Shown: positions 1 through 43,444 of the stretch, in pieces | How positions within the stretch are numbered: position 1 is the first letter of the stretch | Layout: every line of letters begins with the position of its first letter | Origin: a virus | Strand: one strand, 5' to 3' | Length of the DNA: 64,000 nt | Virus record (IMG/VR): IMGVR_UViG_3300045988_051021 | Notes under the pieces: generated by a model | Databases searched by the model: none | The model's input: only the letters and a program-made list of their open reading frames with translations | Told to the model about the DNA's origin: nothing | Translations under genes and position numbers: made by a program

Positions 1-266
1 TTATCTTTAGTAATGCCCTTACATTTGAGAAGGCTCTTGAAGTCCGAGAATATTGTAGAGGGCGTATCCGTTGTGCATTTGGTATTGGAACCAACCTCAC
101 TAATGATACTGGACATAAACCCTCCAATATTGTTATGAAATTGACCTCTTGCCAAATGAATAAAAATCAACCTGTATTTAACTGTGTGAAACTGTCTGAT
201 GATTTGGGTAAGCACACTGGTCTGGAACAAGAAGTGGAACATTGTATGAATGAACTAGGATTATGA
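1..266 (+). CDS. pncB: nicotinate phosphoribosyltransferase, C-terminal fragment (gene starts upstream of window)
   Basis: The frame is open from the window edge to TGA at 264-266. Translation IFSNALTFEKALEVREYCRGRIRCAFGIGTNLTNDTGHKPSNIVMKLTSCQMNKNQPVFNCVKLSDDLGKHTG follows the conserved PncB C-terminus pattern (FSDNLD..SFGIGTxLTxD..LNIVIKL..CNGxPVAKLSDSPGK). The stop overlaps the nadE start (ATGA). Confidence 0.75.
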   Translation, partial: IFSNALTFEKALEVREYCRGRIRCAFGIGTNLTNDTGHKPSNIVMKLTSCQMNKNQPVFNCVKLSDDLGKHTGLEQEVEHCMNELGL

Positions 267-1147
267 AAGAGTTAAATTATGAAAGAGTATTCAATATTCT
301 CGTCAAAGAGACATCGAATTATATTACTAGGAATCGTCTTAATGCTATGGTTCTTGGGATTAGTGGTGGTATTGATTCAACTGTAGTGGCAGCTATCTGC
401 CATGAAGTGAGTAAACAAACTGGCATTCCTCTAATAGGTAGAAGTCTACCTATTAAGAACAAGAATGACGAGTTTAGTGTATCGAAGTTAGTAGGAAATG
501 CCTTCTGTGATGATTTTAAGGTAGTAAATCTTAGTTATATGTGCCAGCATGTAATCCAGGCTATTTATGATGGTGAAGGTACTCTTGGTACTCCTATCTC
601 TAAGGGCAATATTCAGGCTAGACTTAGAATGATTTATCTCTACAATCTAGCAGGAATCAATAGAGGCTTAGTAATGGATACTGATAACCTTACTGAACAT
701 AATCTCGGATTCTGGACTATTCATGGTGATGTAGGTGACTTTGACCCAATTCAAGGTCTATGGAAGACTGAAGTGTATGAATTAGCTAAGTGGCTAATAG
801 GGTATTACTATGAGTGTGGGATAAAGAAAGAAGTGGATGCAGATGGCGCTAGGAAGATTTGTGATATGTGTGAGGCTATTAAAAAGTCAATGTCTCTTAC
901 TCCTACTGATGGTCTTGGTATTAGTAATAGTGACTTAGACCAAATAGGAGCTAAGAGTTATTATGACGTTGATAGAGTATTACAGACTCTTACTTGTAAG
1001 GCTTCTCCAGAGAATAATAAACTACAAGACGAATTAACCGCTGAACTTGGTCCAGATGTTGTAGGTAAGATTACTGAACGGCGCTTCAAATCTAGGTTCA
1101 AGAGATTAGTTAGTCCTATCATAGTGCCAAGGGAAATGTATGATTGA
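263..1147 (+). CDS. nadE: NH3-dependent NAD+ synthetase
   Basis: 294-aa ORF with the PP-loop ATP pyrophosphatase motif SGGIDS (362-379). Size and layout are typical of NadE, and it sits in a cluster with pncB and nadD. Confidence 0.85.
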   Translation: MKELNYERVFNILVKETSNYITRNRLNAMVLGISGGIDSTVVAAICHEVSKQTGIPLIGRSLPIKNKNDEFSVSKLVGNAFCDDFKVVNLSYMCQHVIQAIYDGEGTLGTPISKGNIQARLRMIYLYNLAGINRGLVMDTDNLTEHNLGFWTIHGDVGDFDPIQGLWKTEVYELAKWLIGYYYECGIKKEVDADGARKICDMCEAIKKSMSLTPTDGLGISNSDLDQIGAKSYYDVDRVLQTLTCKASPENNKLQDELTAELGPDVVGKITERRFKSRFKRLVSPIIVPREMYD

Positions 1148-1259
1148 CTTCTTAGAGCTAATTCTAGAATTAGTAAATGTTAAATCACGTAATGAGCTAG
1201 TAGCTCTGCTTGTTATAGGCGGAGTACTAGCCATTATCTATTATTTGTTTCTTATATGA
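1140..1259 (+). CDS. small membrane protein (39 aa, below ORF-track cutoff)
   Basis: ATG at 1140 overlaps the nadE 3' end, and its TGA overlaps the next start (ATGA at 1256-1259). Translation MIDFLELILELVNVKSRNELVALLVIGGVLAIIYYLFLI has a C-terminal hydrophobic helix. Support comes only from coupling geometry and hydrophobicity. Confidence 0.35.
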   Translation: MIDFLELILELVNVKSRNELVALLVIGGVLAIIYYLFLI

Positions 1260-1507
1260 AATTATATTATTTATTTTTGTTAGTAATGTTCCTTCTAATG
1301 GGTTGTACCAATTCATCTAACATTAGTGGTCCAGATGTTATAGGGACATCTAAGATGTATGGAGATGTGCATAGATACACCATTGATGAGCATGAGTATA
1401 TAAAAATGGGTAATGGCTTTACACACTCTGGTACTTGTAAGAAGTGCAAGAAGGAGTTGGAAAGCACCATCCGTAAAATAGTTAAGGAGGAACATTCACA
1501 ATGGTAG
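1256..1507 (+). CDS. putative lipoprotein
   Basis: N-terminus MKLYYLFLLVMFLLMGC is a signal peptide with a lipobox-like LMGC. The mature part is small and carries CKKCKK. It is translationally coupled to its neighbours. Confidence 0.6.
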   Translation: MKLYYLFLLVMFLLMGCTNSSNISGPDVIGTSKMYGDVHRYTIDEHEYIKMGNGFTHSGTCKKCKKELESTIRKIVKEEHSQW

Positions 1508-2061
1508 GAGTATTCTTTGGGTCTTTTGACCCACCCCATATTGGTCATGTTAATATTGTCACAGCTGCACTTAATTCTGGTATTGTTGACAAGGTTATAG
1601 TAGTTCCAGCATATAAGAGTGTATGGAAGAATACTGAAACTAAGTGGGAGTATAGACTCACTATGGCTAAGGAAACCTTTGATAACATTCCTGGAGTAGT
1701 TGTGGATGGTATTGAATATCGTATCGCTAATGGAGAACCATTGCCTACTTATAAGACTATTGAAGCAATAAAAGAGATTTACGGTGAGTTTACTATCGTA
1801 ACATCTGCTGAGACTTATAAGGAGATTCCAAGGTGGCAGCATGGTGAAGAGATACTAAAGGACAATAAGTTCTTAGTAGTAGATGTAGCACACTTTAATA
1901 GTGAGGATATTCCACATGATGAAGTGAAAGTTATCTATGCTCCTGATATTACAATATGCTCTACAGCTATCAGAAAGTGGGTTGATGATGGTAGAATTAT
2001 ATTACCATTTGTAACAGATGAAGTAAATTCAATAATTAGAAAGCTTGGGTTATACAAATGA
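1501..2061 (+). CDS. nadD: nicotinate/nicotinamide mononucleotide adenylyltransferase
   Basis: GSFDPPHIGH (1519-1548) is the (H/T)xGH nucleotidyltransferase motif. The C-terminal ICSTAIRK matches the ISSTxIR motif of NadD-family NMN/NaMN adenylyltransferases. Confidence 0.8.
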   Translation: MVGVFFGSFDPPHIGHVNIVTAALNSGIVDKVIVVPAYKSVWKNTETKWEYRLTMAKETFDNIPGVVVDGIEYRIANGEPLPTYKTIEAIKEIYGEFTIVTSAETYKEIPRWQHGEEILKDNKFLVVDVAHFNSEDIPHDEVKVIYAPDITICSTAIRKWVDDGRIILPFVTDEVNSIIRKLGLYK

Positions 2062-2591
2062 GTCAAATCTATGTTTCAGGTCCTTGGTCTTTTGCTTCTG
2101 GAGTACAGCAAGTAGTTAAGAGTATAAAGGCTAAATCTAAGGGAGATAAGGTAGTTTATAGTGAGAAAGGAACTGAATACCAGTTCTCTAAACTAGAACA
2201 ATCCGACTATGTCGTATTCGTGTTAGATGGATTTGCATGGCAACAGAGGTTAGAAAGTATTTCTAAGGGAATGCTCTCAGAACTTATATGGTGTATTAAT
2301 CATAGAGTACCAATGTTCTTAGCTTACAAATCAGCTAATGAGTTAGGCATATATGCAACTGAAATAGATGACAATTTAACCTTTAAGGGGATTGCAGGCA
2401 CTGCTGACAACTTCTACCAGATTATAAACAATCAGTTTGGGACTATTGTAGCTCCAAATGATACTCCTGGGTTTGTTCTGAGTCACCAAGACACAGTATT
2501 AGGGAGTGATTGTGTATATTTGAAGGGGGAGTGGATAGCTGACCCATTAGATTTCCTTAATGTTGAACAACCAAAGAGTTACTTTTATTAA
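2058..2591 (+). CDS. nucleoside 2-deoxyribosyltransferase-like superfamily protein (function unknown)
   Basis: Three segments resemble the NDT/DUF4406-type signature (IYLAGP.. / ..D.vvA.ldG / D.GT.fElG.A...KPv): N-terminal IYVSGPWS, SDYVVFVLDG, and SKGMLSELIWCINHRVPMF with a conserved Glu. This is pattern-level recognition only. Confidence 0.4.
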   Translation: MSQIYVSGPWSFASGVQQVVKSIKAKSKGDKVVYSEKGTEYQFSKLEQSDYVVFVLDGFAWQQRLESISKGMLSELIWCINHRVPMFLAYKSANELGIYATEIDDNLTFKGIAGTADNFYQIINNQFGTIVAPNDTPGFVLSHQDTVLGSDCVYLKGEWIADPLDFLNVEQPKSYFY

Positions 2592-2592
2592 T

Positions 2593-3135
2593 ATGAAGAA
2601 TTTTCCTTTATTAGACGAGAATGGTAAGGAATGGTGGATTAGCCGTTCTATTGCTGTAACAGGGTGTATATTTACATTCCTAAATGGTAAGTGGTGTGTA
2701 TTAGCCAATAAGAGAGGTGAAGGCACTCCCGACTTCCAGGGAATGTGGAATATGCCATGTGGTTACTTAGACTTTGATGAAACTACAGCACAAGCTGTAA
2801 TCAGAGAAGTCTATGAAGAGACTGGTATTAAAGTGAACCCAGACCACTTGCACTTCTGGAAGTTTAATGATTCCCCAACTCAGAATAGACAGAATGTGTC
2901 ATTTAGATACTATGCTCTAGTTGACGCACAGCCAGGTAATATCAGTGTAGGCACTGGTAATGACAGGGGAGGTGAAGAGGATGAAGTGGAAGCTATAGGA
3001 TGGATTCCAGTAGACTCTATTGATAAATATCAGTGGGCATTTGGTCACGATGAAATCATTAAGGAGTTTACTGAGTGGATGCACCTAGAAGATGGAGATT
3101 TGGATATGCAAGACATAGACTTAGACCCAGTATGA
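2593..3135 (+). CDS. Nudix hydrolase
   Basis: Perfect Nudix box Gx5Ex7REUxEExGU: GYLDFDETTAQAVIREVYEETGI (2761-2829). The start is placed at ATG 2593, directly after the upstream TAA. The ORF-track start at 2560 would overlap the upstream gene. Confidence 0.85.
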   Translation: MKNFPLLDENGKEWWISRSIAVTGCIFTFLNGKWCVLANKRGEGTPDFQGMWNMPCGYLDFDETTAQAVIREVYEETGIKVNPDHLHFWKFNDSPTQNRQNVSFRYYALVDAQPGNISVGTGNDRGGEEDEVEAIGWIPVDSIDKYQWAFGHDEIIKEFTEWMHLEDGDLDMQDIDLDPV

Positions 3136-3213
3136 CATACTTTATAAGTGGACATAGAGACTTAACATGGGGTTTGAGTGATGCGGATGTTGAACAAGCA
3201 ATACATATTCTAA

Positions 3214-3399
3214 ATGATGCCAATACAGCCACTAAGGCACATCTATAATGACCCTTCGTTAGATAGAGAACTTCTATTGAGGAAGCTAGCATCTCTTAGA
3301 CTAAAGAGTATGATTAGTATTGAAGAATATGAGTATTTAAGACATTTAATAAGAAAGGAGAACGAGAATGCTCAGAGAGCAAATGGATGCACTTATTAA
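3214..3399 (+). CDS. hypothetical small protein
   Basis: 61-aa ORF filling most of the 3135-3368 gap, with no recognisable motif. It overlaps the alternative 38-aa ORF at 3132-3248, so the true coding assignment here is uncertain. Confidence 0.3.
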   Translation: MMPIQPLRHIYNDPSLDRELLLRKLASLRLKSMISIEEYEYLRHLIRKENENAQRANGCTY

Positions 3400-3853
3400 G
3401 CAGTCTATGCTTGATAAGAATGTAAAGAGGACAGAGGTGTTAAGAGCTATTAAGAATGAGTTCTTAGTGTATCAAACTGCTAAAGGTGCTAAGCCTTTAG
3501 ATGATGCAGCCGAGTTTACTATTCTTCGTAAGATGGTAAAGCAAAGATTGGATAGTAGAGACCAATATCTGGAAGGTGGAAGGAAAGACCTAGCTGATAA
3601 TGAATCTAAAGAGATTCTAGTGCTTGAGTCTTTCCTTCCTCGACAAGCCACGGTTGAGGATGTCAATAAAGCAGTCGCAGAAATATGTAAGGAGAGAGGC
3701 TGGTATATTCCAGAGGAAGACTACGGAGAAGGCGCAATCTCCCCACAAATCCCGAAAAAGTCTATGGGAGAGGTTATTAAATTGGTCAAGACACAGCTTA
3801 ATAATGTAGATGGTAAATTACTGGCAGACACTGTTAAAACATATCTAGTATGA
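3368..3853 (+). CDS. GatB/YqeY domain protein
   Basis: Colinear similarity to B. subtilis YqeY: N-terminal L..Q....MK......L.V.R, central ILRKMVKQRLDS, LESFLP, and C-terminal MGEVIKLVK...DGKLL. Confidence 0.8.
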   Translation: MLREQMDALIKQSMLDKNVKRTEVLRAIKNEFLVYQTAKGAKPLDDAAEFTILRKMVKQRLDSRDQYLEGGRKDLADNESKEILVLESFLPRQATVEDVNKAVAEICKERGWYIPEEDYGEGAISPQIPKKSMGEVIKLVKTQLNNVDGKLLADTVKTYLV

Positions 3854-4290
3854 AAGCGTATATAGGAAACGTAGACTGGGCAGACGAAGGAGATGTATTC
3901 TTCTTTAGCGTAGAAAGTGAAGAGAATCTAAAAGCAATGAAGGACTTAATAGATATTCTCGTAGAGCTTGATTTATTCTACTCAACAGAGATGTATTGGG
4001 GAACCAATGAATACTTTGACTTCGGGGCAGATGACTTCCTGGAATTTATTAATGAAGCTAAGGATATATCTGAAGAAGAATTAGCTACACTTAATAAATT
4101 CAAAATATCTGGGTTTGACATTTTTGAAAGAATGTCAGATAAACTACATGACCTAATTTGGGACTTGGATTATGATATTTCGCAGGAAGATTTAGATAGA
4201 ATCAAACCTCTCTATATTAAGCTGTATGACCAGAAGAGTTGGGAGGATATTCAAAAATGGTTTGACAATAAGAGGGAACATGACGATTAA
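3850..4290 (+). CDS. highly acidic hypothetical protein
   Basis: 146-aa ORF coupled to the yqeY-like stop (ATGA). My count is 39 D/E against 15 K/R. No catalytic motif was seen. Confidence 0.6.
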   Translation: MKAYIGNVDWADEGDVFFFSVESEENLKAMKDLIDILVELDLFYSTEMYWGTNEYFDFGADDFLEFINEAKDISEEELATLNKFKISGFDIFERMSDKLHDLIWDLDYDISQEDLDRIKPLYIKLYDQKSWEDIQKWFDNKREHDD

Positions 4291-4528
4291 AGAAATTGTA
4301 ACCTTAAAGGGTCTAGCTAGGTTTAGTCATGCTATAGCAGGAACTCTATACTACAAAATTGAAACAGATGATGCAACTGTAGAGTTTCCTATTGACATGA
4401 ACGATAAGGATGATGTGGGTACAACCACATTTGTAGCTTCCTATAAACCCATTACATTGATGAGGTACATAAGAAAGGCTATAGAGAATGGAACCTTAAT
4501 TAAGGTTGATAAATCTAAGTTGAAATAA
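4280..4528 (+). CDS. hypothetical protein
   Basis: The ORF track gives 4226-4528. The internal ATG at 4280 overlaps the upstream stop (ATGACGATTAA) and fits the coupling style used elsewhere in this genome. Confidence 0.5.
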   Translation: MTIKEIVTLKGLARFSHAIAGTLYYKIETDDATVEFPIDMNDKDDVGTTTFVASYKPITLMRYIRKAIENGTLIKVDKSKLK

Positions 4529-4594
4529 TTGTGCTATATAATAATTAACTAATATATCTAACTCTACTCGAATTTCATAAAATTCATAGTTTAA

Positions 4595-4626
4595 TTTGGT
4601 AATACTGCTTATAATGCCTATATTTG
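4595..4626 (+). promoter_or_regulatory. Bacteroides-type promoter (-33 TTTG / -7 TAnnTTTG)
   Basis: TTTG at 4595-4598, a 20-nt spacer, then TATATTTG at 4619-4626. It lies in a 137-nt AT-rich intergenic gap, 39 nt upstream of ATG 4666. Confidence 0.6.
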
Positions 4627-4665
4627 TAGAAATTAAGTGGTTAAACTGTTTAAACGTATTAATTT

Positions 4666-4980
4666 ATGAAAATCGAAGAGAAATTTAGAAAATTCCAACA
4701 AGGTGGTGCTGCACCTCAGCCAGGAGCTGAACAAGCAGGAGGAGCACCAGCTGAGGGAGCACCGGCAGAAGGTGGTGCACCTGCTGAGGGTGGACAAGAC
4801 CCAATGGCACAGATTTTACAAGTAGCTGCTCAGGCAGTTCAGACACAGAATTGTGAAGCTGCGATGGCTGTGTGTCAAGCCCTAATGCAAATCGCTCAAG
4901 GTGGTGCTGCTCAGGAACAAGCTCCTCAAGAGGAACCAACTTTTGCAAGGAAAGGTGCTAGACTAGTAAGAGTAAGATAA
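4666..4980 (+). CDS. small Gly/Ala/Pro/Gln-rich protein with N-terminal FQQGG motif (probable abundant virion-internal protein)
   Basis: 104-aa ORF with its own promoter and a downstream terminator. It has an N-terminal KFRKFQQGG motif, (G)APAE repeats and a helical Q/A-rich C-terminus. Confidence 0.65.
   Translation: MKIEEKFRKFQQGGAAPQPGAEQAGGAPAEGAPAEGGAPAEGGQDPMAQILQVAAQAVQTQNCEAAMAVCQALMQIAQGGAAQEQAPQEEPTFARKGARLVRVR
4741..4794 (+). repeat. imperfect in-frame tandem repeat (15-18-nt units encoding G-APAE)
   Basis: GGAGCACCAGCTGAG / GGAGCACCGGCAGAA / GGTGGTGCACCTGCTGAG. This locally GC-rich stretch also creates the spurious antisense ORF 4685-4948. Confidence 0.7.
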
Positions 4981-4999
4981 TTAGTCAACAAGGTAAGAA

Positions 5000-5030
5000 G
5001 GGGCGTATATTAATTATATGCTCCTTTTTT
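5000..5030 (+). terminator. intrinsic terminator / attenuator
   Basis: GGGGCGTATA (5000-5009), loop TTAAT, TATATGCTCC (5015-5024). The stem is 10 bp including two G.U pairs and is followed by T6 (5025-5030). It sits between the small gene and the giant-gene run. Confidence 0.65.
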
Positions 5031-5044
5031 ATTATACATAGTAT

Positions 5045-8000
5045 ATGTCACAAGTAATAAGGAAATATAACTCTGGAGGTCAAACTGATAAGCCTAAGCT
5101 TCTAAGTGTGAAGGGCTTGGGGGATTTCAATCAGGATGATTTAATAAAAAGAGGATACAGAGATGTAGATGAATATGCTTCATCTGAAGGGTTGGGAAAT
5201 ACTGCCGCAGCTGATTTTAGAAACGCTGTACAATATATGCTTGAGGGGATTAGTAATGGCACTATGACTATGGATGCTATGGGTAACTTTCAAGATGCAA
5301 CGGGTCAAAAGTCAAGTACAGGTGAGCTAGATAGAAAGAAGTTTCTAGGAATAAAGACAGGGGTTAAGAATACTGAGAACAATGCTTACGGTCTAGCTGC
5401 TGATTACCTATATAACATCATTAAAGGTTCCCCTCAGTATAAACAACCAGAAGTAAAGAAGGAAAGATTTAACGCTAATAAACTCATGGAAGATGCCATT
5501 TCAAGAGAATGGTATGGAGGTAACGCCATAGATTATAATAATTGGTTCCGTAATAGAACAGAACAAGACCGCAACGCTCTAATGGGTAGAATTTGGGATA
5601 GTGCTGATTATAACCAAATATTTCAATCCCATGACTGGTCTGGAACTAATATAAGGAGTGCAGAAGATTTAGCTGCTCTTGGTAGAGCATATGGTGCGGC
5701 TATTACTAATAACAAACTAGACAATGACGATTATAATACCTTTGCTGCGTTAGGCGGTACTGGTTTAGACAAATTCATAAGACCTACTCAACAAGCAACT
5801 ACCCCACAATCATCTACAGTTGAAGGACAGCAAGGTAAAGTTGATACAAGCTGGACTAACTCAGAATATGATAGGACAGTTGATGATAAAGGTAAATATC
5901 ACATATACAAGAAAGGAACCAATGAAGAGGTAAGTGGAATACTTCCTGGTAATGTATTCAAAGGTGTTGGAAATAGATATGCTTTTGATGGTAATATCTA
6001 CGACGATTCCAACCTACCAGAGCAATATAGACAGGATATTACTAGAGCAAGACAAGCCCAACTCGGTGAATATACAAGTCTTACAGATAATAATCCCTTT
6101 ACTAAGATGCTAAAGGGTCAGGGTTATAATTATATCACTAATTTATCTCAGTTTGCGTCTGGTGTAGGTAATAATGTCTTATACGGAGCATATTCCAATC
6201 CTTCTGACGTGAATGGTAAGATGGGTTTCTACCTAAAGAATCCTACTACTGGTAAGACAACTAGAGGTTCAGTGGAACTTAACAAATCACTAGGTGAATA
6301 CCAATTTATCGGAGAGGATGGTAATGTTATAAATCTAGGAGCATATAACCCTAACGGAGCAAGAGAAAGACAGGGAGTTAAGTTCGTAGACTATACTGAT
6401 ACTTCTAAGGCTAATTGGGAGAATCTATTCAATACATGGATGCAGGACCCAGACTTGTCGAATCCAGCTAGTGAGGCATACCGAATGGTGCAAAACACTT
6501 TGAGTAAGTGGATTGACTCAAAACAATCCCCATTTGTAAAATATGGTAAGGATTATAAATGGGCTGTTGGGGACAATGACATGAATGTTGCAAGAAACAA
6601 CGATGGTACACTATCATGGTATTTCAATAATAAAGTTGAAAGTGAGGATGAATCTAGCAATGAGCTACGGAGGCTGTTAAGTATCCCAACCGCTGAGAGA
6701 AGTAGAGAAATAAATGACAGAATATTAAAGTTACAAGGATACAAAAAAGGTGGTGTAATAAGTGCCCAACTAGGTACTAAGTTTATAGAAGACACTACCC
6801 CACTAAAAGTAAGTGCAGTACAACCTGATGCTGAACAGATTGAAAGGAATACTAAAGCTAGACAATCATTTACTGGTAGGTCCAATGTATCACTAGGTAA
6901 CAATAAGGATATAACTGATGCAGGTGGTGTTATAAAAACATCCGATAAAGTTAGGCTTGGTGCGGCTATGGCAGACCTAGCTAGTATTGGTTTAGGATTC
7001 GTTCCTGGAGCTAATTTAGCCTCTGCAGGAGTGGGAGTTGGTGCTTCTCTCGCCGAGTTTGGGGCTGATTTAGCTAGTGATGGACCTCAATGGGGTGACC
7101 TTGGTAGACTTGGAGTGAATTTAGGAATGGATGCCCTATCCTTGATTCCTGTTGGGAAGACATTAAAGGCTACTAAAGCTTTAGGTAAAATAAAGAAGTC
7201 AATTCCAGTACTTATGACTCTTATTAATACTACTCCTTATCTTGACCCAGCAATAAGGTCAGAGTATAGTAAGACACTATCAAAGCTTACTAAAGGCGAT
7301 ATAAAGAGCCTGAATACTGGAGACTTTAAGAACCTCTCTGCTATTGCTAGTACTGTATTAATGGGTAAGAATTTAGCCCAATCTCACAGAGGTTGGTGGA
7401 ACTCTTCAACTACTCCTTCGGGTAAAAGACGGGTTACAGCTATGATTGATGGTAAGCAACAAACACTAGAGGTAGACGATGCGTTCTTCCAGAATACTAA
7501 AGGTAAGAATCAGGTAGCAGAACTTAAGACTAAGTTTGCTGAACAATATAACAAAGCTAATAAACTTGAGGGAGATAAGGCTATAAAGCCCGAAAGTGTG
7601 TCCGTAGACACTAAATACTTTGGAAGAAGGCCTCAGTCTGAAGAGGTTGAGGGAACAAAAACTGATGGTAATTGGTTCTCTAACAGCTTAATTGGTAAGC
7701 ACATAGCTGGTTATAGAGACCCGTCTGTAGTAAGAGGTAGTGAGAATATTCCATTCTCCGATGCTTGGTTCTTAAAGAAGGGTTCAACTAAGCCAAAGTC
7801 TGTGGTTCAGTCTAAATCAATAAATGAAACTGCCGATGCAGTATCTTCTATGATAGGAGCACTTCATACAGCATCAAAATTTAGGCAAGCCCCATTAGCT
7901 CTACCAGCTCCTGGACAAGTAACTCCATCTAATAGAGTATTCTATATGGGTTCAGGTAAACCTAAGGCTCCCAAAGATGTAACTAATCCATCTAATCTTA

Positions 8001-10141
8001 AAAAGCCAGGAAGCTATACTGATAGGGCTGTTCCAGTAGGGGGTACTCCAGTACAATCTCCTAATGCTAATGCAGTTAGAACAGTTAATGTTATCAACTC
8101 TATATTAGAGCCATTTGTTCCTAAATCTAAGAACTTACCTGCTGTTATTCCTGCATCAAGAAATGCTCAAAAGGTAGTAGCTTCTCAAACTATACAGCCT
8201 AGTCAAAGATTGGACCAGTTCATTGAGGGACAAATCCCAGGCGGAAGACAATTTGGTAGACAGAGAGCTAAGACTGAGAAGGAATATAGGGATGTATTCC
8301 ATCCTGCAGCTGAACGAGAGTATAATCAAGTTTGGGATGAGGCTATTAAAAACAGAAAGGACTTTGGGTATGAAGAAGTATCTCCTAAGAGAAGTCCATA
8401 TACCCCACCAACCCCTACTGAAGTATATGTAGAACCTAAAGGAGCTATAAAAGACCCTAATGCAAGGTATCTATGGGAACTTATCAATAAGAAGTCTAGT
8501 ACTTCACATATTAAGAGAGATAACCTACCCCACAAAGGCAAATCAAAAAAGAAGAAAACTTCAAAGGATGATAGGGTTACTAAGAAGGCTGAAGGAGGAT
8601 TAATACAATTCTTACAAGGTGGTAACACTGTAGGTAGAATTAAAGCTAAAGATATGTCTAGTTGGAATAGGTCTAAAGCTCTATCTGGGTATGACTTTGG
8701 GGCAGATGCTGATAGATGGAAATCTCAGTACACAGGCTCAGACGATTGGAGGCAAGCTTATGCAGCAGCATTTAATGGTGGCGAAGATATTTATGACCAA
8801 CTAACATCTATGACTGGTAATTATTTCGGAGGCAACTATAATTACTCAGTGCAAGACCCATTAGCTAAACACAGACAGGTTACTTTTAGGGGTACTAATC
8901 AAGGTTTTGATGATTTAATCAGAAAGGGTATCGTAGGTTATGGTACTACAGAAGGTAATTCTGGGTTTGATGTGTATGCTGGAGATAGAACTGGCAATAG
9001 AACTCTTGGAAGGGGTATGTCAGCTGAGGATGTTTCCCGCTTTAATGAACAGTTAAGGACAAGAGGTTTAGAGCTTTATGACAAAGGTGATGGTGGATAC
9101 AGACTAAGGTTACTTCAAGACCCTACTAATGAGCTTGGGGAAGTTGTAGTTACAGCTCCTAGAGTTTCAAATACATCTAACCCATCTAGCATTAAACGTA
9201 CACCAGGTAATACCAAAAAGGGTCTAAAACTTAATGTAGCACCGGAGGAAGTGTTAGCTTTAGGTAGAATGGTAGGAGGTTTAGCCGCGAATAATAGAGC
9301 TGCTAGAATCTATAAAGAAGGGTTAAAGCCTACTCTATTAGACACATTTGAGAATACTGTTCCACTGCAAGGCAATTTCCAAGCAGTGACTAATGCTGAA
9401 CAACAAGCAGGCAATTTAGAATCTGTGGCTGCAAGACCTAGAACTTCTGATGCTTCATTGCAATTAGCTGGAGAATTAGAGGCTAGTGGTAGAGCAGGTC
9501 AGGCTAGATTCCAAGGTGGTCTACAAGATGCAGAAATGTTCTATAAGACTAGGATGTTAGGGCAGCAAGAATCCGATGCAGCTAAAGCAAGAAGGGTAGA
9601 AGTTGCCAATAGAAATAGGGCTTCAATGAATGCTATAGATGCAGCTAAAAAGCAAATTGATGCTGGAAGAGTAACTGCAAACTATCAGCAGGTTATTGCT
9701 CCTTACCTAGCTGGCGTAGAGAATAGATTTAGACAAACTAAAGCTATGAGAGACCAACTAGCATTAGAATCTTATTTGAATGAAGCTAATTCAAATTATA
9801 ATACTAGTGCCGCTAAGATTATGGAAGACTATAAAGACGACCCAATAGGTGCTCAGAGAGAACTATCTAAGCTACAGAAAGGATTACAGTCTGATATGTT
9901 AAAGAAGAGAAGTTCACTAATAAGTACCCCTTGGTTAGTTCAGTTTAGTGGAAAAGGTTCTAAATTATCCTATGCTGAGAGGGCTATGCTTCAAAGAGCT
10001 AAGGACTTTAATAAAAGATTATCTGATGATAATAAACAGTTTCACAAAGATGTAATGGAATCTAAGAGGGAACATAATAAGATGATAACAAATATGTCAG
10101 CCCTCACTGCTGCACTTATAAAGAAAGGAATGCAACTATGA
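5045..10141 (+). CDS. giant virion cargo/ejection-type protein (1698 aa)
   Basis: Uninterrupted 5.1-kb ORF. It has the N-terminal IRKYNSGG motif, internal YKKGG and FLQGG motifs, a Gly-zipper-like hydrophobic segment (LGAAMADLASIGLGFVPGANLASAGVGVGASLAEFG), a K/P-rich linker and a long coiled-coil-like C-terminus. The function is inferred from its position in the crAss-type RNAP/cargo block. Confidence 0.6.
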   Translation: MSQVIRKYNSGGQTDKPKLLSVKGLGDFNQDDLIKRGYRDVDEYASSEGLGNTAAADFRNAVQYMLEGISNGTMTMDAMGNFQDATGQKSSTGELDRKKFLGIKTGVKNTENNAYGLAADYLYNIIKGSPQYKQPEVKKERFNANKLMEDAISREWYGGNAIDYNNWFRNRTEQDRNALMGRIWDSADYNQIFQSHDWSGTNIRSAEDLAALGRAYGAAITNNKLDNDDYNTFAALGGTGLDKFIRPTQQATTPQSSTVEGQQGKVDTSWTNSEYDRTVDDKGKYHIYKKGTNEEVSGILPGNVFKGVGNRYAFDGNIYDDSNLPEQYRQDITRARQAQLGEYTSLTDNNPFTKMLKGQGYNYITNLSQFASGVGNNVLYGAYSNPSDVNGKMGFYLKNPTTGKTTRGSVELNKSLGEYQFIGEDGNVINLGAYNPNGARERQGVKFVDYTDTSKANWENLFNTWMQDPDLSNPASEAYRMVQNTLSKWIDSKQSPFVKYGKDYKWAVGDNDMNVARNNDGTLSWYFNNKVESEDESSNELRRLLSIPTAERSREINDRILKLQGYKKGGVISAQLGTKFIEDTTPLKVSAVQPDAEQIERNTKARQSFTGRSNVSLGNNKDITDAGGVIKTSDKVRLGAAMADLASIGLGFVPGANLASAGVGVGASLAEFGADLASDGPQWGDLGRLGVNLGMDALSLIPVGKTLKATKALGKIKKSIPVLMTLINTTPYLDPAIRSEYSKTLSKLTKGDIKSLNTGDFKNLSAIASTVLMGKNLAQSHRGWWNSSTTPSGKRRVTAMIDGKQQTLEVDDAFFQNTKGKNQVAELKTKFAEQYNKANKLEGDKAIKPESVSVDTKYFGRRPQSEEVEGTKTDGNWFSNSLIGKHIAGYRDPSVVRGSENIPFSDAWFLKKGSTKPKSVVQSKSINETADAVSSMIGALHTASKFRQAPLALPAPGQVTPSNRVFYMGSGKPKAPKDVTNPSNLKKPGSYTDRAVPVGGTPVQSPNANAVRTVNVINSILEPFVPKSKNLPAVIPASRNAQKVVASQTIQPSQRLDQFIEGQIPGGRQFGRQRAKTEKEYRDVFHPAAEREYNQVWDEAIKNRKDFGYEEVSPKRSPYTPPTPTEVYVEPKGAIKDPNARYLWELINKKSSTSHIKRDNLPHKGKSKKKKTSKDDRVTKKAEGGLIQFLQGGNTVGRIKAKDMSSWNRSKALSGYDFGADADRWKSQYTGSDDWRQAYAAAFNGGEDIYDQLTSMTGNYFGGNYNYSVQDPLAKHRQVTFRGTNQGFDDLIRKGIVGYGTTEGNSGFDVYAGDRTGNRTLGRGMSAEDVSRFNEQLRTRGLELYDKGDGGYRLRLLQDPTNELGEVVVTAPRVSNTSNPSSIKRTPGNTKKGLKLNVAPEEVLALGRMVGGLAANNRAARIYKEGLKPTLLDTFENTVPLQGNFQAVTNAEQQAGNLESVAARPRTSDASLQLAGELEASGRAGQARFQGGLQDAEMFYKTRMLGQQESDAAKARRVEVANRNRASMNAIDAAKKQIDAGRVTANYQQVIAPYLAGVENRFRQTKAMRDQLALESYLNEANSNYNTSAAKIMEDYKDDPIGAQRELSKLQKGLQSDMLKKRSSLISTPWLVQFSGKGSKLSYAERAMLQRAKDFNKRLSDDNKQFHKDVMESKREHNKMITNMSALTAALIKKGMQL

Positions 10142-37114: not shown

Positions 37115-38751
37115 TATTCAACTGTATTTAATAGTCCTGTGTTATCAACTGTATTCTCAAGAATCTCATGTACAAGTAGTTTACCAGCTTCAATAGCAGC
37201 TTCATCAGAACCGTCCTGCATTAGCTTCTCTAATTGCTTAGTAACCTCAAGATTGAAGATTATTTCTTCTCTCTCTACCTCAGCGTGTTGCTTTATATCG
37301 CCACCCTTCTCCTCAGTAATAACTGGAATACCTTTAGTAGTTACTTCCTCAAACTTCTCATCTACATTCTCTAAGTGATGTTTATGGGCGTGTAATGCTC
37401 CATCTGGTATTACATTAACAGCTCCACCATTTTTAAACTTCTTTGGAACATATCTATAATAATCCCCAGACTTATCTAAGTCATAGTTATTCCTAAATTG
37501 AATAGCTTCTGGGTCATTAGAGTTGTACCAATCTAACTCATATTTAAGAGTTGGATGGTCTTTAGCCTTCATGAACTCATAAATTCCAGTTTTAGGGTTT
37601 AAGTATACTGAATTTAGGTGATTCTTCCCAGCTTTTAAATCAGATACACTAGATGTTCTCCATGCTTCCAATTCCTCTCTTGGGGCTAGTTCGAAAGCCC
37701 TTCTAAGATTATAAGAAGTAGTATCCCTTCTATCCTCTGGAATCATATTATACCAAGATTCAAAAGTAACTTTAGGGGCAGCTCCTGTCATACCATCTAT
37801 ACTTCCCCCTTTTTGGAATCCAGCCACTTCCTCCATTCTAACCTCTTCTTGAATCTTCTTCCTCTTTTCCTTCTGACCTTTAGATAGTTTAACTACTCTC
37901 TTTGCAAAGTCTTTATCCATCTTTAGTCCAGATTTACCAGCCCTTACAGTATTCTGCTGATAACCTCCATTTAGTTGTAATTGAGTTCCTAATCCGAGTA
38001 AAGGATTGTTAGAAGCTGTAAATGCCATCTGTGCTTCATCAGCTATATTACCCATTTTAACTTGCTGCATCTGAGCATTATGTATTTGCTTATTAGCCTT
38101 ATTTCTTGCCCCACCACTAAATAGTCCATACTTTTTACCGCTCTTAGTAAGGGCATCATCTACAGTAGCTTGGGTTCCACCATAAGAAGACCCTACCTGC
38201 TCGAATGCCTCGTTGTCTTTAGTAATAGTATCTGCTTTCTTAGCACCAATAGAGTTAATTAGACCCACTGGAGTTAGTTTGAGGAACTTACTATCTAATA
38301 TCTTGTCGGCTGTAGTCATTTGGTCTGTTCCTACTCCCAATGCAGTTAATCCGTCTGATAACATTCCACCTACTTTCATAGCACCTCCTATAATAGTACC
38401 AACTCCAGGTATAGCAGACACAGCATTAGCAGCAGCATCATAGCCTTGGTTTAGTCCAGTAGTTAAAGCTGACTGTTCAGTCTGCGGGATTAGACTCCCA
38501 GCCACATCAGCAATACTCCCAGCTAGTCCAAAACCTTTATTGAGATTATTTTGCCTTGCGTATGTCCTTCGTATATTGGAGGATTGGTTCTTATTCCATT
38601 GTCTAACTGTGTCAGGAAGTTCTAACTGCGTAGGTATCTGAGGTTGCTGAATCATTGAAACAAGACTTGTAGGTTGGGGTAGTGGAGGAGTCAGATTACT
38701 CCCCCCTGTTAGTACCCCAGAATTTCGATATTTCTGTATACGTTTACGCAT
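37114..38751 (-). CDS. virion cargo/ejection-type protein (545 aa) sharing GG motifs with the 1698-aa protein
   Basis: N-terminal IQKYRNSGVLTGG, a Gly-zipper-like segment (GFGLAGSIADVAGSLIP...AIPGVGTIIGGAMKVGGMLSDGLTALGVG), and internal FQKGGS and FKNGGA motifs. Confidence 0.55.
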   Translation of the reverse strand: MRKRIQKYRNSGVLTGGSNLTPPLPQPTSLVSMIQQPQIPTQLELPDTVRQWNKNQSSNIRRTYARQNNLNKGFGLAGSIADVAGSLIPQTEQSALTTGLNQGYDAAANAVSAIPGVGTIIGGAMKVGGMLSDGLTALGVGTDQMTTADKILDSKFLKLTPVGLINSIGAKKADTITKDNEAFEQVGSSYGGTQATVDDALTKSGKKYGLFSGGARNKANKQIHNAQMQQVKMGNIADEAQMAFTASNNPLLGLGTQLQLNGGYQQNTVRAGKSGLKMDKDFAKRVVKLSKGQKEKRKKIQEEVRMEEVAGFQKGGSIDGMTGAAPKVTFESWYNMIPEDRRDTTSYNLRRAFELAPREELEAWRTSSVSDLKAGKNHLNSVYLNPKTGIYEFMKAKDHPTLKYELDWYNSNDPEAIQFRNNYDLDKSGDYYRYVPKKFKNGGAVNVIPDGALHAHKHHLENVDEKFEEVTTKGIPVITEEKGGDIKQHAEVEREEIIFNLEVTKQLEKLMQDGSDEAAIEAGKLLVHEILENTVDNTGLLNTVE

Positions 38752-41700
38752 AACTTACGATATATAATGTTTTTAAAGCTGTTATTATAGCTAACTCATC
38801 ACCAGTATATCTCACTTTAATCTTTATATATTTATCCCTAATTCTAGTCTCCTTCCTTTCATTAGACCATTTATTAACATCTAATGACAAGAAATCAGCA
38901 CTATAACCTCGGTCTCTTAATTCAGATGGGATATCAGAGTTACTAGTAATATTTAGAGCAGTCATACTCTCTGGTAATGGATTGTTAACTAGGTTAAGGG
39001 GTGGATATGTATTACCATCTTTATCCTTAATAGACCAAGCTAATTCATTTTTAGCCCAATAAGTTATAGAAGGTATTTGAATATCCCACTTATCTTCTAA
39101 GTAGTCCATGTTACCATTTATTCTACCATACTCCATAACCTCATACCATTTACCATTTTGAACTAGTACATTTGTGTATCCAGCTGCTATAAGTGAGCTA
39201 TATCTATCTTGAGTTATCTCTTGTAAATATCTCTTCTTAAAAGGACATGCCTTAATATGAGTAGCTATTCTAAATTCATTCAGTTGTTTATCATGTACAA
39301 TCTCAGAACCAGATATATGCTGGTAATCTCTACCAGCTGATGTCATTGATTGGTAATGGTCTTCAATATCATTCAGACTGTTTACCCTTGAATAGAATAA
39401 CGGGAACATAACTGACATATCCTTGTACTTAGTAGTGCTATATAATATGTCTCTTTGTTCTGGTATAACATTCAAGTAGTCATGATTATAAACTATATCT
39501 GCACCATTGTATTGGTATAGATGTTTAGTAGCCTCTTGTCTAAAATACATATTCTTTTTGTCGTTGGCAAAGTTATATACTTCTCCAACAACTTCAAAAT
39601 GGAATGATTCAGGTTGGGTCTTATTACTTATAATCTGTAAGTTATTAAAGATTTTATGTACTGATGGATTATCAACTACAATAAATTCCAGCTCAAATGG
39701 ATGTTGCTTACCATACCAATAGCAAGGACTAATTGGCTTTCTAGTAGGCATTAATCCAGCTTGACCATGCTTCCAGAATGAAGTAGTCAGTAAGTCGTAC
39801 CTCATCTTAGTAATTACAGTCACATTAGAGTATAATGTCTTTACTACATTTCTAACCTCACCTTCAACTAAGTCAGTTCCTTGATTATATACTACTGCTT
39901 TAATAGGTATTGTCCACCTACTATCTCCCACAGAATTAGCACTAACGGATACCTGATTCCCATTAGTAATGAAGAACTTATTTCTAACTCTATCATCAGC
40001 AATACTGTATTCAACACTTGAACCACTAATGTCCAGATTCAGCTGTAAGTTACCTAACTTAGCTTTACCATCTACTACAGTTAGTACGTTATCAACTACT
40101 GCACCACCCTGCATACTAATAAGAGGGTAGTTAGAAGTTATCTTAGTAATTGTCTTAGATGTATTCCTGTCAAAGCTAAAGAAGATATTGTCAATATTCT
40201 CAGAATATGATGGAACCCATGAGTAGAATGTTACAAACTTCTGCATTACCTCATTGTAGCATAAATTCCATACATTCTCTTCCAATGTATTAATATCATC
40301 ATAGAAGGTAAACATTACATCTTGCTTAAACCTATTGTAGTGAGTTTTAACGTTCCTAATACCAATAATTGGAGTCTTCTCTTTCTCAGTAAGTGAGATA
40401 TTGTCATTCAAGAACTTCTGTACTTTAAAGTCTGAGATAACCTCAAACGTCTGTCCATTAGTTCTCCAAATCTTCTTCCCGACTGTATCCACTCCGTAGA
40501 CGTAATAGGGAGTCTTGATGACACTCTCTGACCACTGAGTACCGAATGTATCAGACAGCATTTTTGGATTCTCTGGCAGTACGTTAGAGGTGTTTATGAA
40601 GATATTTCCGCCTGCACCTTCACCTGCAACGGCTCTTTCATTGACTGGTATCAAAGCAACACCATGTTCAAATACACAGATAATACTACCAAACCATTCA
40701 ACTAGCTTAACTATACTACCATAAGTTAATGGATAATCTCTATAATGAGTTAATTTGAATACTCTATATCCATTCTTGAATGAGTCATTAACATTTACAT
40801 CAGAATACATAACCCTAATATGGAATTTATTCTTGATAGCTGGAACATTTGGTAGTTCATAATAATACTTATCAGATGTAGTAGAGTTGATGCCCCCATT
40901 TATAACAAATGATTCTGGTATTTTAGATTCACCAGTAACTGACATAGCCTGTAATGGATAGAATCCTCTAGCTTTACCAGTCAGTCCTAGTTCTGAAATA
41001 TATGACATATCAACACTTCTCATAGATAAATTAATATTACTACACACCCTAACAGTAACCCAGTGTCCCATCTTAATAGCATTTACATCCCCTCTATTAA
41101 TCTTACTATTCTTCTCACTATCACTAATTGTATAGTTATCTTTCCATGACATTTGGTCTACTATATCGTCATTAGTAGGAGCTGATGAATCTTGGAAATT
41201 CCTACACATTCTATGAGTATAATTACCTATATAACAATCACCTCTAAACAAGTCCTTAACTATCATATTACTTCCATCCTCCTCCATATCGTCCCATACC
41301 ATTCTGTTACATATAGCATAGAACGCTGAAGAATCCTCGTACCTCACTTCAAAGTATGTATCTAATAGATTCTCTTCATAGTTAGGAATTTTAATATCAA
41401 TAAGACTCATTTTACTAGTGTTGTATCCTTCTAGACCAATATAAGGCCCCCAACTTCCCCTTAGTAGATTCCTAGCATTAGATGATTTATTAGTGTAATC
41501 ATAATATGATACTCTCCATGCTTCCTCAGCTTCCCCAGCCCTTGCACTGAATAATTGTTTCTTCCCCTTAAGTGACTTAACATTATCTCCAACTGCCATT
41601 ATGTTGTACACCTCATCTTGAGTTGCATCATTATAGCTGTAGGATGTATTATAAAAATGTACTCCGCTTCTCTCAAAATACTTCTTAGTAAACTGAGACT

Positions 41701-43444
41701 TAGCCATCTTAACGTTAAACTGAGTTCCAGTAAATAGCTGATTAAAGTAGGATTGTCTTAGTTCAAACTCAGGACACAAAGCAGCATATCCCTCTAACAC
41801 AGACTTGGAAGGAATATCTTTACATCTTCTGTCAAAGTCATGTGTCAATACTCCATCATCATCTAGGAATCTCTCTACTCTATATTCATCATCACTCGTT
41901 GGTAGAACTGGCAGATAGCTTGTATTCTCTAGTCCAATTGTAACTGCCTGAGCTAGTGTAGTAGGTATTCTCTTTTGTCTTACGAAGAAGAATCCTTTAG
42001 TATATCTCCTTAATTCCCTAGCTGCATCTTTGCTAATCTTAATATCAAATCCAATTGGAATTGTACCACTATCAGCTAATTGATTACCGTTATATTTAAT
42101 TTTAACTACACCCTTAGAGTTTTCATTCTGACTATCTAGCTTATATGTTTCCTTATTAATAGGGATATATTCTCTATTAGCCTGGATAGTAGCTATATCA
42201 TTAGTACTAGTCGGGTCAAATCCTTCTTTAAATAGTGGATAATCCTTCCAATCTATTCTATCTGCATCCCCAAGTTTGGCTAGTCTACTAATACCCCTAA
42301 TATTAAATACAGGAGATAGGGTATAGTCATTAAGGATATATACCACCCCTAGTCTGTAGATTTCATCATTCCAATATCCGAGTCTGTTATAGATGTTCAT
42401 CACATTGTAATACTCGTATGGTTGGGCTACTCCGGAATTGTCCTTATAGTCTTTATCAACTCTTCCTATATTGTTCTCTACATTTAACTCTGGCAGGAAG
42501 TGAAGAGATAGGTCTGTAAGTTCTTTATATGGAATATCTGGATTAGCTACATTGCCTAAGAATAGCATATTCTGACAAGTAGTTTGTGCTACTGCACTAT
42601 TAACCACATTGTATGCTACGTTAATATCATTAATACTAACAGATTGTACAGTTTCAAATCCAGTAATACTAATCTTAGCCACATTATTATATACGGCAAA
42701 CTGTTTCATAATCTTAAACGATGTAGTCATTTCATTTCCATCTATATCAGATGTACTTCTTGTATAATAAACTACTACATTGTTGTAAGATGAATCTATG
42801 TTAGTTAGTAAGAATGAAGCTGACTTATAACTGTTTTCATCTCTAATTCCACCTTGTATAGAGGATGGGTCATTCAAATTACCAATATGGCAAGTTACTA
42901 TGCCTGACTCAGCTATAAAATCTGTTTCATTCCCATCTGAATCCGATAACTTAAAGTAGAATACATAATTACCAACCCTCAAATTACCACTAGTATTTAG
43001 CCCCATGAATGTGAGGTTAGCAATATTGTTAGTCTTCTTATAAAGAGATATATCAGATTCAAAGGAATCTATGTCATATATGTTAGTATCATTATCTCCT
43101 TCTCTATCTACAATTTGATATGTGTTCATACCAGTAGATGAGAATCTTGTATTAATTAACTTAGGATAGGTACTTCCGTCATTAAGGATAAGGTTAACTG
43201 AACCATCATAAGACTGTTGAGTAACAATGTCAATAGGATGGTTCAGGTCAAAGTTAAGTAGTTCTGTATCTAGGTTAATTAAACTACCTTTAGGATACAC
43301 AACTGACCCATGTTCCCTTATATCCTCATTAGTTCTTAAAACCCTTAATGGGTTATATTCATAAACTAATGCTCCTTTTTGTTGAAGTTGATTTAATCCT
43401 AAGTCTAAGTTTAGTGACTTACCACTTAGTGATTTGAAGTTCAT
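38744..43444 (-). CDS. large virion structural protein (1566 aa; tail module by position)
   Basis: Uninterrupted 4.7-kb ORF in the late arm, next to the cargo-type protein. It has a beta-rich composition and no enzymatic motif was recognised. The function is inferred from synteny with crAss-like tail genes only. Confidence 0.5.
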   Translation of the reverse strand: MNFKSLSGKSLNLDLGLNQLQQKGALVYEYNPLRVLRTNEDIREHGSVVYPKGSLINLDTELLNFDLNHPIDIVTQQSYDGSVNLILNDGSTYPKLINTRFSSTGMNTYQIVDREGDNDTNIYDIDSFESDISLYKKTNNIANLTFMGLNTSGNLRVGNYVFYFKLSDSDGNETDFIAESGIVTCHIGNLNDPSSIQGGIRDENSYKSASFLLTNIDSSYNNVVVYYTRSTSDIDGNEMTTSFKIMKQFAVYNNVAKISITGFETVQSVSINDINVAYNVVNSAVAQTTCQNMLFLGNVANPDIPYKELTDLSLHFLPELNVENNIGRVDKDYKDNSGVAQPYEYYNVMNIYNRLGYWNDEIYRLGVVYILNDYTLSPVFNIRGISRLAKLGDADRIDWKDYPLFKEGFDPTSTNDIATIQANREYIPINKETYKLDSQNENSKGVVKIKYNGNQLADSGTIPIGFDIKISKDAARELRRYTKGFFFVRQKRIPTTLAQAVTIGLENTSYLPVLPTSDDEYRVERFLDDDGVLTHDFDRRCKDIPSKSVLEGYAALCPEFELRQSYFNQLFTGTQFNVKMAKSQFTKKYFERSGVHFYNTSYSYNDATQDEVYNIMAVGDNVKSLKGKKQLFSARAGEAEEAWRVSYYDYTNKSSNARNLLRGSWGPYIGLEGYNTSKMSLIDIKIPNYEENLLDTYFEVRYEDSSAFYAICNRMVWDDMEEDGSNMIVKDLFRGDCYIGNYTHRMCRNFQDSSAPTNDDIVDQMSWKDNYTISDSEKNSKINRGDVNAIKMGHWVTVRVCSNINLSMRSVDMSYISELGLTGKARGFYPLQAMSVTGESKIPESFVINGGINSTTSDKYYYELPNVPAIKNKFHIRVMYSDVNVNDSFKNGYRVFKLTHYRDYPLTYGSIVKLVEWFGSIICVFEHGVALIPVNERAVAGEGAGGNIFINTSNVLPENPKMLSDTFGTQWSESVIKTPYYVYGVDTVGKKIWRTNGQTFEVISDFKVQKFLNDNISLTEKEKTPIIGIRNVKTHYNRFKQDVMFTFYDDINTLEENVWNLCYNEVMQKFVTFYSWVPSYSENIDNIFFSFDRNTSKTITKITSNYPLISMQGGAVVDNVLTVVDGKAKLGNLQLNLDISGSSVEYSIADDRVRNKFFITNGNQVSVSANSVGDSRWTIPIKAVVYNQGTDLVEGEVRNVVKTLYSNVTVITKMRYDLLTTSFWKHGQAGLMPTRKPISPCYWYGKQHPFELEFIVVDNPSVHKIFNNLQIISNKTQPESFHFEVVGEVYNFANDKKNMYFRQEATKHLYQYNGADIVYNHDYLNVIPEQRDILYSTTKYKDMSVMFPLFYSRVNSLNDIEDHYQSMTSAGRDYQHISGSEIVHDKQLNEFRIATHIKACPFKKRYLQEITQDRYSSLIAAGYTNVLVQNGKWYEVMEYGRINGNMDYLEDKWDIQIPSITYWAKNELAWSIKDKDGNTYPPLNLVNNPLPESMTALNITSNSDIPSELRDRGYSADFLSLDVNKWSNERKETRIRDKYIKIKVRYTGDELAIITALKTLYIVSYA

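Follow-up and report, generated by a model that had tools for sequence, protein, structure and literature searches.

A crAss-like phage operon for deamidating NAD+ salvage and its candidate role against NAD+-depleting host defences

The IMG/VR virus record IMGVR_UViG_3300045988_051021 was analysed as a stretch of 64,000 nt (hereafter the window), the first 3135 nt of which carry, on the plus strand, a compact module for the synthesis of nicotinamide adenine dinucleotide (NAD+). The module comprises the 3′ end of pncB, nadE, a small lipoprotein-like open reading frame (ORF), nadD, a conserved gene here called orfX, and a nudix gene, followed by a YqeY-like gene. ORFs of the operon were scanned with Pfam and NCBIfam, and the layout is as follows:

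3..266, plus strand: 3′ end of pncB, the last 87 codons and stop in frame 3, the gene being cut by the window edge
263..1147, plus strand: nadE, 294 residues, a single-domain NAD+ synthetase with no glutaminase domain
1256..1507, plus strand: small lipoprotein-like ORF, 83 residues, with a signal peptide and a lipobox-like LMGC followed by HSGTCKKCK
1501..2061, plus strand: nadD, 186 residues, a nicotinate (nicotinamide) mononucleotide adenylyltransferase
2058..2591, plus strand: orfX, 177 residues, conserved and with no Pfam family
2560..3135, plus strand: nudix, 191 residues from the ATG at 2560 or 180 residues from the ATG at 2593
3368..3853, plus strand: YqeY/GatB-tail-like gene (YqeY Pfam, 9e-28), for which no membership in the pathway is claimed

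ATGA overlaps join pncB to nadE and nadD to orfX, the final 7 nt of the small ORF fall within nadD, and orfX and nudix either overlap by 32 nt or lie 1 nt apart, should nudix begin at the ATG at 2593. Only nadE and the small ORF are clearly set apart, by 108 nt; the description of the module as a translationally coupled run in the initial annotation, made from the DNA letters, thus holds for most junctions but not for this one. For comparison, relatives of the window NadE were collected from IMG/VR (31 loci, numbered from L001), with L001 (188-kb contig) and L002 (149 kb) as the main references; the carrier phages are ~150-190 kb in size. Over window positions 1-3853, DNA identity is 97% with L002 and 92% with L001, and beyond that point it is 98% with each. 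Three independent assemblies (L067, L069, and L070), for which precomputed Pfam calls agree, were reached via distant OrfX homologues. The YqeY-like gene lies downstream of the module in L001-L020, L067, L069, and L070.

Each enzyme is identified by motifs and profile matches together. The partial pncB product reads GIGTNLTND...KLSDDLGK...ELGL up to its stop, matching the nicotinate phosphoribosyltransferase (NAPRTase) Pfam model at 1.8e-10 and TIGR01514 at 1.8e-23, across profile positions 312-396 of 399; the full-length L001 orthologue (8841-10004, 387 residues), which contains MGTHPHEW, scores 410 bits against TIGR01514, above the equivalog cut-off of 269.55. NadE displays an SGGIDS PP-loop, matches NAD_synthase at 4.1e-36, and reaches 120 bits with TIGR00552 (cut-off, 63.65); its best PDB match is the NH3-dependent NadE 3p52 (6.5e-21), with which the SGGxDS and T-N-x-x-E...GD motifs align, and a lineage-specific insertion of ~30 residues follows residue ~180. 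In NadD, GSFDPPHIGH and ICSTAIR are present, CTP_transf_like is matched at 2e-12, and the best PDB matches are, over full length, the nicotinate mononucleotide (NaMN) adenylyltransferases 2h29 (5e-12) and 1kam, with HxGH and ISSTxIR aligned; against TIGR00482 the protein scores 90.9 bits (1e-25), under the cut-off of 112.45. The Nudix protein matches PF00293 NUDIX at 1.4e-16 and contains the canonical box (GX5EX7REUXEEXGU) as GYLDFDETTAQAVIREVYEETGI. Its similarities to NadM-Nudix (NF003785, 7.5e-8) and NrtR (2.2e-5) are weak and not above those to MutT/NudJ, and its match to the NadM-Nudix fusion 2qjt (5.7e-6) covers the box region only. The initial annotation had named these genes as the C-terminus of PncB, an NAD synthetase, an adenylyltransferase for NaMN or nicotinamide mononucleotide (NMN), and a canonical Nudix enzyme; all four names are borne out by these matches, the catalytic motifs of NadE and NadD are kept on alignment to PDB enzymes, and family and motif evidence for each of PncB, NadD, and NadE agrees with their placement in the Preiss-Handler route.

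The same annotation had reported no pncA in the window, which is correct, and had cautioned that NADase effectors release nicotinamide and not nicotinate. In close relatives (L001/L002), however, pncA is found upstream, just past the 5′ edge of the window, which removes this caveat and makes the pathway fuller than the window alone reveals. In L001, pncA (8260-8844, 194 residues, isochorismatase family) is directly upstream of pncB and overlaps the pncB start; the encoded route thus starts from nicotinamide, and nicotinamide released by NADases can enter it. The L001 product scores 36 bits with the Isochorismatase Pfam model (cut-off, 27), has nicotinamidase/pyrazinamidase as its sole NCBIfam match (2e-16, under the NF008623 cut-off), and finds its best PDB matches in the nicotinamidases 3r2j (1.6e-18) and 1ilw (4.8e-16). 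The motifs VVDxQxDF, DWHPxNHxSF...HCV, KG, and CGxAxDxCV align, with the D/K/C triad and the metal site intact. A pncA gene adjoins the pncB position, on its upstream side, in L001-L003, L005-L017, L019-L020, L067, L069, and L070; L004 has a 35-residue remnant and L018 none.

We propose that window positions 1-3135 are the distal two-thirds of an operon of the form pncA-pncB-nadE-(small lipoprotein)-nadD-orfX-nudix, which would share its expression with genes for replication and nucleotide metabolism in a crAss-like phage. PncA would convert nicotinamide to nicotinate, which PncB would combine with phosphoribosyl pyrophosphate (PRPP), using ATP, to form NaMN; NadD would then add AMP to give nicotinate adenine dinucleotide (NaAD), and NadE would amidate NaAD to NAD+, presumably in an ammonia-dependent manner given the missing glutaminase domain. 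The Nudix enzyme would probably hydrolyse ADP-ribose (ADPR) to AMP and ribose-5-phosphate, from which host Prs could remake PRPP; ADPR as the substrate is our favoured guess, and the NadM-Nudix fusion protein of the Vibrio phage KVP40 has reportedly been proposed to recycle ADPR towards PRPP in a similar way. The activities are assigned from the biochemistry of the respective families, onto gene identities, motifs, conservation, selection, and clustering that were observed.

L001-L017 and L019 all share the order pncA-pncB-nadE-nadD-orfX-nudix(-yqeY). A diverged clade retains this gene order at identities of 36% for PncA, 33% for NadD, 32% for OrfX, 45% for Nudix, and 74% for PncB; that PncB stands at 74% while other proteins are at 33-45% indicates allele replacement with retention of the pathway. 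The module order also recurs in L067 (OrfX, 28% identical), L069, and L070, although pncB is lost from L070, and, at identities as low as 25%, orfX in the module is in every case flanked by nadD and nudix. In L069, a gene with a NADAR domain (PF08719; 3305-3796) is inserted between pncB and nadE; NADAR is an ADPR-processing domain earlier noted beside phage NAD+ salvage genes (PMC9503650). Pairwise ratios of nonsynonymous to synonymous substitution rates, taken against close relatives, run from 0.03-0.04 (nadD) and 0.04-0.05 (nudix) to 0.07-0.1 (OrfX N-domain) and 0.12-0.2 (nadE). As judged by these ratios, the module genes are under purifying selection.

The locus also undergoes loss and recombination. 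L004 is without pncB and most of pncA, L020 is without nadD and orfX, and L018 retains nadE only. Further, clean deletions are marked by two in-frame chimeras, both of them present on two contigs: PncA(N)::OrfX(C) in L152 (4203-4673), where pncB to nadD is deleted, and OrfX(N)::YqeY in L153 (5001-5477), where nudix is deleted. By its gene content across these loci, the module is accessory and mosaic. Separately, OrfX fragments fused to NadD or NadE domains were seen in other database matches (P0087, P0092, P0094, and P0095); L153 carries an extra gene between pncB and nadE (2521-3213), encoding a 230-residue ABC_tran/AAA-type ATPase; and L007 displays a gap of ~685 bp at the pncB/nadE junction (~9316-10001).

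Chromosomal PncB proteins from Bacteroides, Phocaeicola, Parabacteroides, and Paraprevotella share 65-69% identity with phage PncB along the full length; these bacterial proteins were recovered with a profile of phage PncBs, a single-sequence query having returned nothing. This similarity points to a Bacteroidales host and to a host-derived pncB. Since such hosts encode their own PncB, the operon duplicates at least one host step and is not gap-filling. No other module gene lies within ±6 kb of pncB at any of 80 Bacteroidales loci, from which we infer that the operon was assembled in phages. The alternative of a captured host operon was rejected because the genes are unclustered around pncB in these 80 genomes. 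As for the carrier, its crAss-like identity, stated in the initial annotation, is confirmed by matches to Crass_capsid (5.6e-14; window 53586-54854, minus strand) and to crAss_MUZ (2.5e-29) with crAss_MUZ_C (window 38744-43444, minus strand); the window further encodes a BACON-domain protein and giant ORFs of 1.6-3.1 thousand residues, and PHROGs were nearly uninformative on the structural ORFs.

Upstream of the module, ~20 kb were scanned in relatives (L001/L032; Pfam and NCBIfam). This region encodes a UvrD-like helicase, dUTPase, ATP-dependent DNA ligase, RNA-ligase-like protein, CCA-adding enzyme, polynucleotide kinase-phosphatase (PNKP), DNA polymerase A, a CYTH protein, ThyX, a uracil-DNA glycosylase (UDG), and two metallophosphoesterases. 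The phage DNA ligase depends on ATP and hence consumes no NAD+, and supply of NAD+ to the phage's own ligase was rejected as an explanation on this ground; no NAD-dependent ligase was found in the ~20 kb, nor any NAD+-consuming phage enzyme in the ~30 kb examined upstream. Neither prs nor a nicotinate transporter was seen in the ~20 kb scanned, and the idea that one of them is encoded there was likewise rejected. An RNA-repair set lies 10-20 kb upstream of the window position (L032, 5011-8614; L001, 3441-3968), comprising PNKP (AAA_33 and HAD_PNKP), a CCA-adding enzyme/poly(A) polymerase head domain, and the RNA-ligase-like ORF, with the CYTH protein near; this set looks like a counter-measure to anticodon nucleases. 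The two metallophosphoesterases are calcineurin-like, lie immediately upstream of pncA (L001, 6234-6884 and 7387-8082), and are kept as a pair in every relative, among them the diverged L012, L067, L069, and L070. Phage phosphatases that process ADPR-1''-phosphate exist (10.64898/2026.01.28.702374), and a link of this pair to ADPR metabolism is conceivable.

When 1.8 billion representatives were scanned in full with HMMER, the OrfX family came to 251 members at E ≤ 1e-3, all homologues residing on unannotated metagenomic contigs, in contexts that were phage-like where examined, and none with a Pfam domain. Residues Y41, G71, E75, and Y99 are invariant, the middle two forming a G71-x3-E75 motif. 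An AlphaFold2 (AF2) model built on a deeper alignment, an earlier shallow-alignment model having been poor, gives a three-layer alpha/beta domain with a predicted local distance difference test (pLDDT) score of ~97 for residues 1-125; a poorly predicted hypervariable segment follows, and then a conserved tail, EQPKSYFY. The initial annotation had called this protein similar to nucleoside 2-deoxyribosyltransferases (NDTs). Against Nuc_deoxyrib_tr (PF05014) the match is sub-threshold (best E 0.0077; 15.9 bits versus a cut-off of 28.8) and recurs, likewise sub-threshold, in 12 of 25 OrfX homologues and 1 of 64 wider members, and profile searches of PDB sequences gave chance-level matches only. 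Foldseek returned no match below E = 1e-3 in PDB or BFVD; its best compact PDB matches, all at E > 1e-3, were E. faecalis 7m5h, YtoQ, and ThsB TIR domains, with the 2'-deoxyribosyltransferase 7o62_D at a template-modelling (TM) score of 0.53 (E 0.05); BFVD contributed two entries labelled nucleoside 2-deoxyribosyltransferase (E 1.7e-3 and 1.3e-2). NDTs are thus among the best fold matches, but sequence and fold scores all fall short of threshold, and they weakly favour the NDT label as a reasonable lead and not as family membership. More distant OrfX relatives occur in phage contexts without NAD genes.

The small ORF, of ~80 residues with a lipobox-like Cys and a conserved H...HSGxCKxCK motif, has no family match; homologues at 43-48% identity occupy the same position in L067 (5202-5453), L069 (5206-5454), and L018 (~6626-6856), and it is absent from L007/L008 and the L012 clade. 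A secreted or lipid-anchored protein within a cytoplasmic NAD+ operon is puzzling. In a more speculative scheme, which we regard as unlikely, OrfX may be a new NAD/ADPR-conflict enzyme (a glycosidase) or a TIR decoy, and the operon a composite system that destroys signals and rebuilds NAD+, more than a mere duplicate of the bacterial pathway. As an N-/O-glycosidase, OrfX would break NMN, nicotinamide riboside, or ADPR-derived immune signals into salvage substrates, and the small lipoprotein would be a second new component.

The operon probably serves to maintain NAD+ in infected Bacteroidales cells when the pool falls. Host defences of the NADase type yield nicotinamide and ADPR. To our reading, there is about an even chance that the benefit of the operon lies in resistance to NAD+ depletion by such defences (TIR, SIR2, SEFIR, etc.). 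Consistent with this are the nicotinamide input, the duplicated host step, and the company of Nudix, NADAR (L069), and the weakly NDT/TIR-like OrfX, as well as the ATP-dependent ligase, the nearby RNA-repair genes, and the accessory, mosaic nature of the locus. Moreover, phage rebuilding of NAD+ defeats NAD+-depleting defences in the case of NAD+ reconstitution pathways (NARPs) 1 and 2 (10.1101/2024.02.11.579819) and NARP3 (PMC13464706). Several points nonetheless weigh against a counter-defence role. With four steps and a cost of PRPP and ~3 ATP, the response would be slower than that of NARP1 or NARP2; the natural deletion variants show that the module is not required for viability; NadD and PncA score under the NCBIfam equivalog cut-offs; and pncA with the first ~300 pncB codons lies outside the window, its presence being deduced from relatives. 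ThyX, encoded 3 kb upstream, also fits a plain metabolic role, as this flavin-dependent thymidylate synthase is an NAD(P)H user. Such a role, i.e., an ordinary auxiliary metabolic module with the same enzymes but no specific tie to NADase defences, which would raise or sustain NAD(P) once the host is shut off, to the benefit of phage replication and nucleotide synthesis, or would complement hosts with poor salvage, is a serious possibility, albeit one we are inclined to doubt. The module does sit in a replication and nucleotide block (DNA polymerase, dUTPase, ThyX, and UDG), a survey of gut jumbo phages treats clusters of this kind chiefly as metabolic reprogramming (PMC11662467), a route this slow and costly suits an emergency response poorly, and the deletion variants survive in nature. 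However, with 65-69% identical PncB encoded by the hosts, no gap is evident at that step; no phage NAD+ consumer was found in the ~30 kb examined upstream, the ligase being ATP-dependent; and the co-occurring Nudix, NADAR (L069), and NDT/TIR-like proteins are typical NAD/ADPR-conflict domains (PMC9503650).

Two other readings were weighed. In a Francisella-type order, NadE would amidate NaMN to NMN and the adenylyltransferase would then convert NMN to NAD+, with the same net pathway; NadE does match F. tularensis NadE 3fiu (9.6e-15) among other NH3-dependent NadEs, and NadD-family enzymes can accept NMN, the name of TIGR00482 itself covering nicotinate (nicotinamide). The best NadE matches are, however, the ordinary NaAD-using enzymes 3p52 and 1xng, and the best NadD matches are the NaMN-preferring 2h29 and 1kam, with the proviso that alignments do not give substrate preference; we consider this order improbable. 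Further still from our expectation, to the point of being very improbable, is that NadD, OrfX, and Nudix act on NAD-capped RNA or on ADPR-derived immune signals, and not on bulk NAD+ supply alone, with Nudix decapping or hydrolysing and OrfX serving as a glycosidase. Conservation is tightest across these three overlapping genes, which stay together even after the loss of pncB (L070), the G-x3-E motif places an invariant Glu on an NDT-like fold, and phage glycosidases that destroy cyclic ADPR signals and feed NAD+ synthesis exist (PMC13232231). Yet OrfX is without established family membership, its distant relatives occur apart from NAD genes, and Nudix has no specific subfamily assignment.

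The initial annotation presented the PncB-NadD-NadE set as an enzymatically distinct third solution to NAD+ depletion, which overstates its novelty: NARP3 consists of PnuC and NadR (PMC13464706), and pncB-nadD-nadE clusters, along with phage pncA, have earlier been described from bioinformatics (PMC11662467). The operon is a phage-assembled NAD+ salvage pathway and a further example of a described route, not a new solution. The 2024 survey of gut jumbo phages listed 174 genomes with complete salvage or Preiss-Handler pathways; it also gave a pncB-nadD-nadE cluster (Kuafu_71), Bacteroidota hosts, and phage pncA, and it suggested counter-defence without a test (PMC11662467). By description, such clusters resemble the present one in having pncB-nadD-nadE on a phage genome, Bacteroidota hosts, and a gut setting; their carriers are at least 200 kb (the survey cut-off), in contrast to the ~150-190 kb of the crAss-like phages here. 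Beyond that survey, the present analysis documents the gene order with its two conserved genes that have no assigned function, how the module is conserved and selected, the host origin of pncB, and the deletion variants. Five jumbo IMG/VR contigs (L021, L026, and L028-L030) with PncA-PncB..NadE at 37-53% identity to the window module probably represent the jumbo phage group of the survey.

Comparison with the NARPs separates the routes by their chemistry. NARP1 comprises Adps and Namat and NARP2 comprises Nampt and Nmnat, in a paper without mention of PncA, NadE, or nicotinic acid (10.1101/2024.02.11.579819). NARP2 and the NadV-NatV system of KVP40 (Nampt and Nmnat-Nudix) are alike to the present operon in starting from nicotinamide and PRPP, ending with an adenylyltransferase, including a Nudix domain, and rebuilding NAD+ during infection; however, NARP2 follows a two-step amidated route via NMN, whereas the operon here would follow a four-step deamidated one (PncA, PncB, NadD, and NadE), as the NadE step implies, with a phosphoribosyltransferase that is a PncB-type NAPRTase (TIGR01514 equivalog) and not NadV/Nampt, and with Nudix as a separate gene. 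NARP1 is likewise a phage operon restoring NAD+ from NADase products, but it re-joins ADPR (via ADPR-PP) with nicotinamide, whereas here ADPR would at most be recycled indirectly; Pfam and NCBIfam scans found neither Adps, a PRPS-like ADPR pyrophosphokinase, nor Namat in window positions 1-4528 or the ~20 kb upstream (L001/L032), and neither was seen in the ~30 kb examined upstream. NARP3, a phage NAD+-restoring module shown to defeat Sir2-HerA (PMC13464706), combines nicotinamide riboside import with a bifunctional NadR; no PnuC or other such transporter and no NadR were found here, NadR models matching at 1.4e-5 or weaker and on the HxGH region. Bacterial PncA-PncB-NadD-NadE salvage has the same chemistry, yet pncB is unclustered in the 80 Bacteroidales genomes and clustered here, the phage NadE is without a glutaminase domain, and Nudix, OrfX, and the small lipoprotein are additions of the phage operon. 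Literature linking crAss-like phages with NAD+ synthesis was not found, within incomplete coverage.

NAD+ depletion is a widespread bacterial anti-phage strategy; three phage rebuilding pathways have been proven, and the deamidating four-step route appears only in genome surveys. In the crAss-like phages, one of the major virus groups of the human gut, the present locus provides that route in compact, conserved, and clearly phage-assembled form, with deletion variants that could act as natural controls. If it does defeat NADase defences in Bacteroidales, the NARP concept would extend to the Preiss-Handler route and to the dominant gut phage-host pair. New activities in NAD/ADPR metabolism may also reside in OrfX and the small lipoprotein.

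Among GenBank phages, megablast with window positions 1-5000 retrieved a single unannotated record, whose match spans 5% of the query, and tblastn with a giant ORF found two unannotated records only, with no annotated close relative; exact-sequence look-up with the window NadE gave no match. No tRNA genes were found in the window, no NAD+ riboswitch or other RNA family was detected by Rfam in L001 or the window, and sigma-70 promoter-like and terminator-like sites were not above their frequency in shuffled sequence. Downstream of the module, a 146-residue acidic ORF with no family (window 3850-4290, plus strand) is missing from L001, L002, L009, and L010, in which its flanks join directly (indel at window ~3854-4279), and in L003-L008 nudix and yqeY are separated by a different stretch of inserted DNA, ~900 bp long. 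Elsewhere in the window, a homing-endonuclease-like ORF (52310-53380, minus strand; phrog_314, 7.6e-26) lies ~200 bp from the major capsid gene, and GC skew and AT skew both change sign at ~36 kb, where genes switch from the plus to the minus strand and the convergent arms end at 35750 and 35805.

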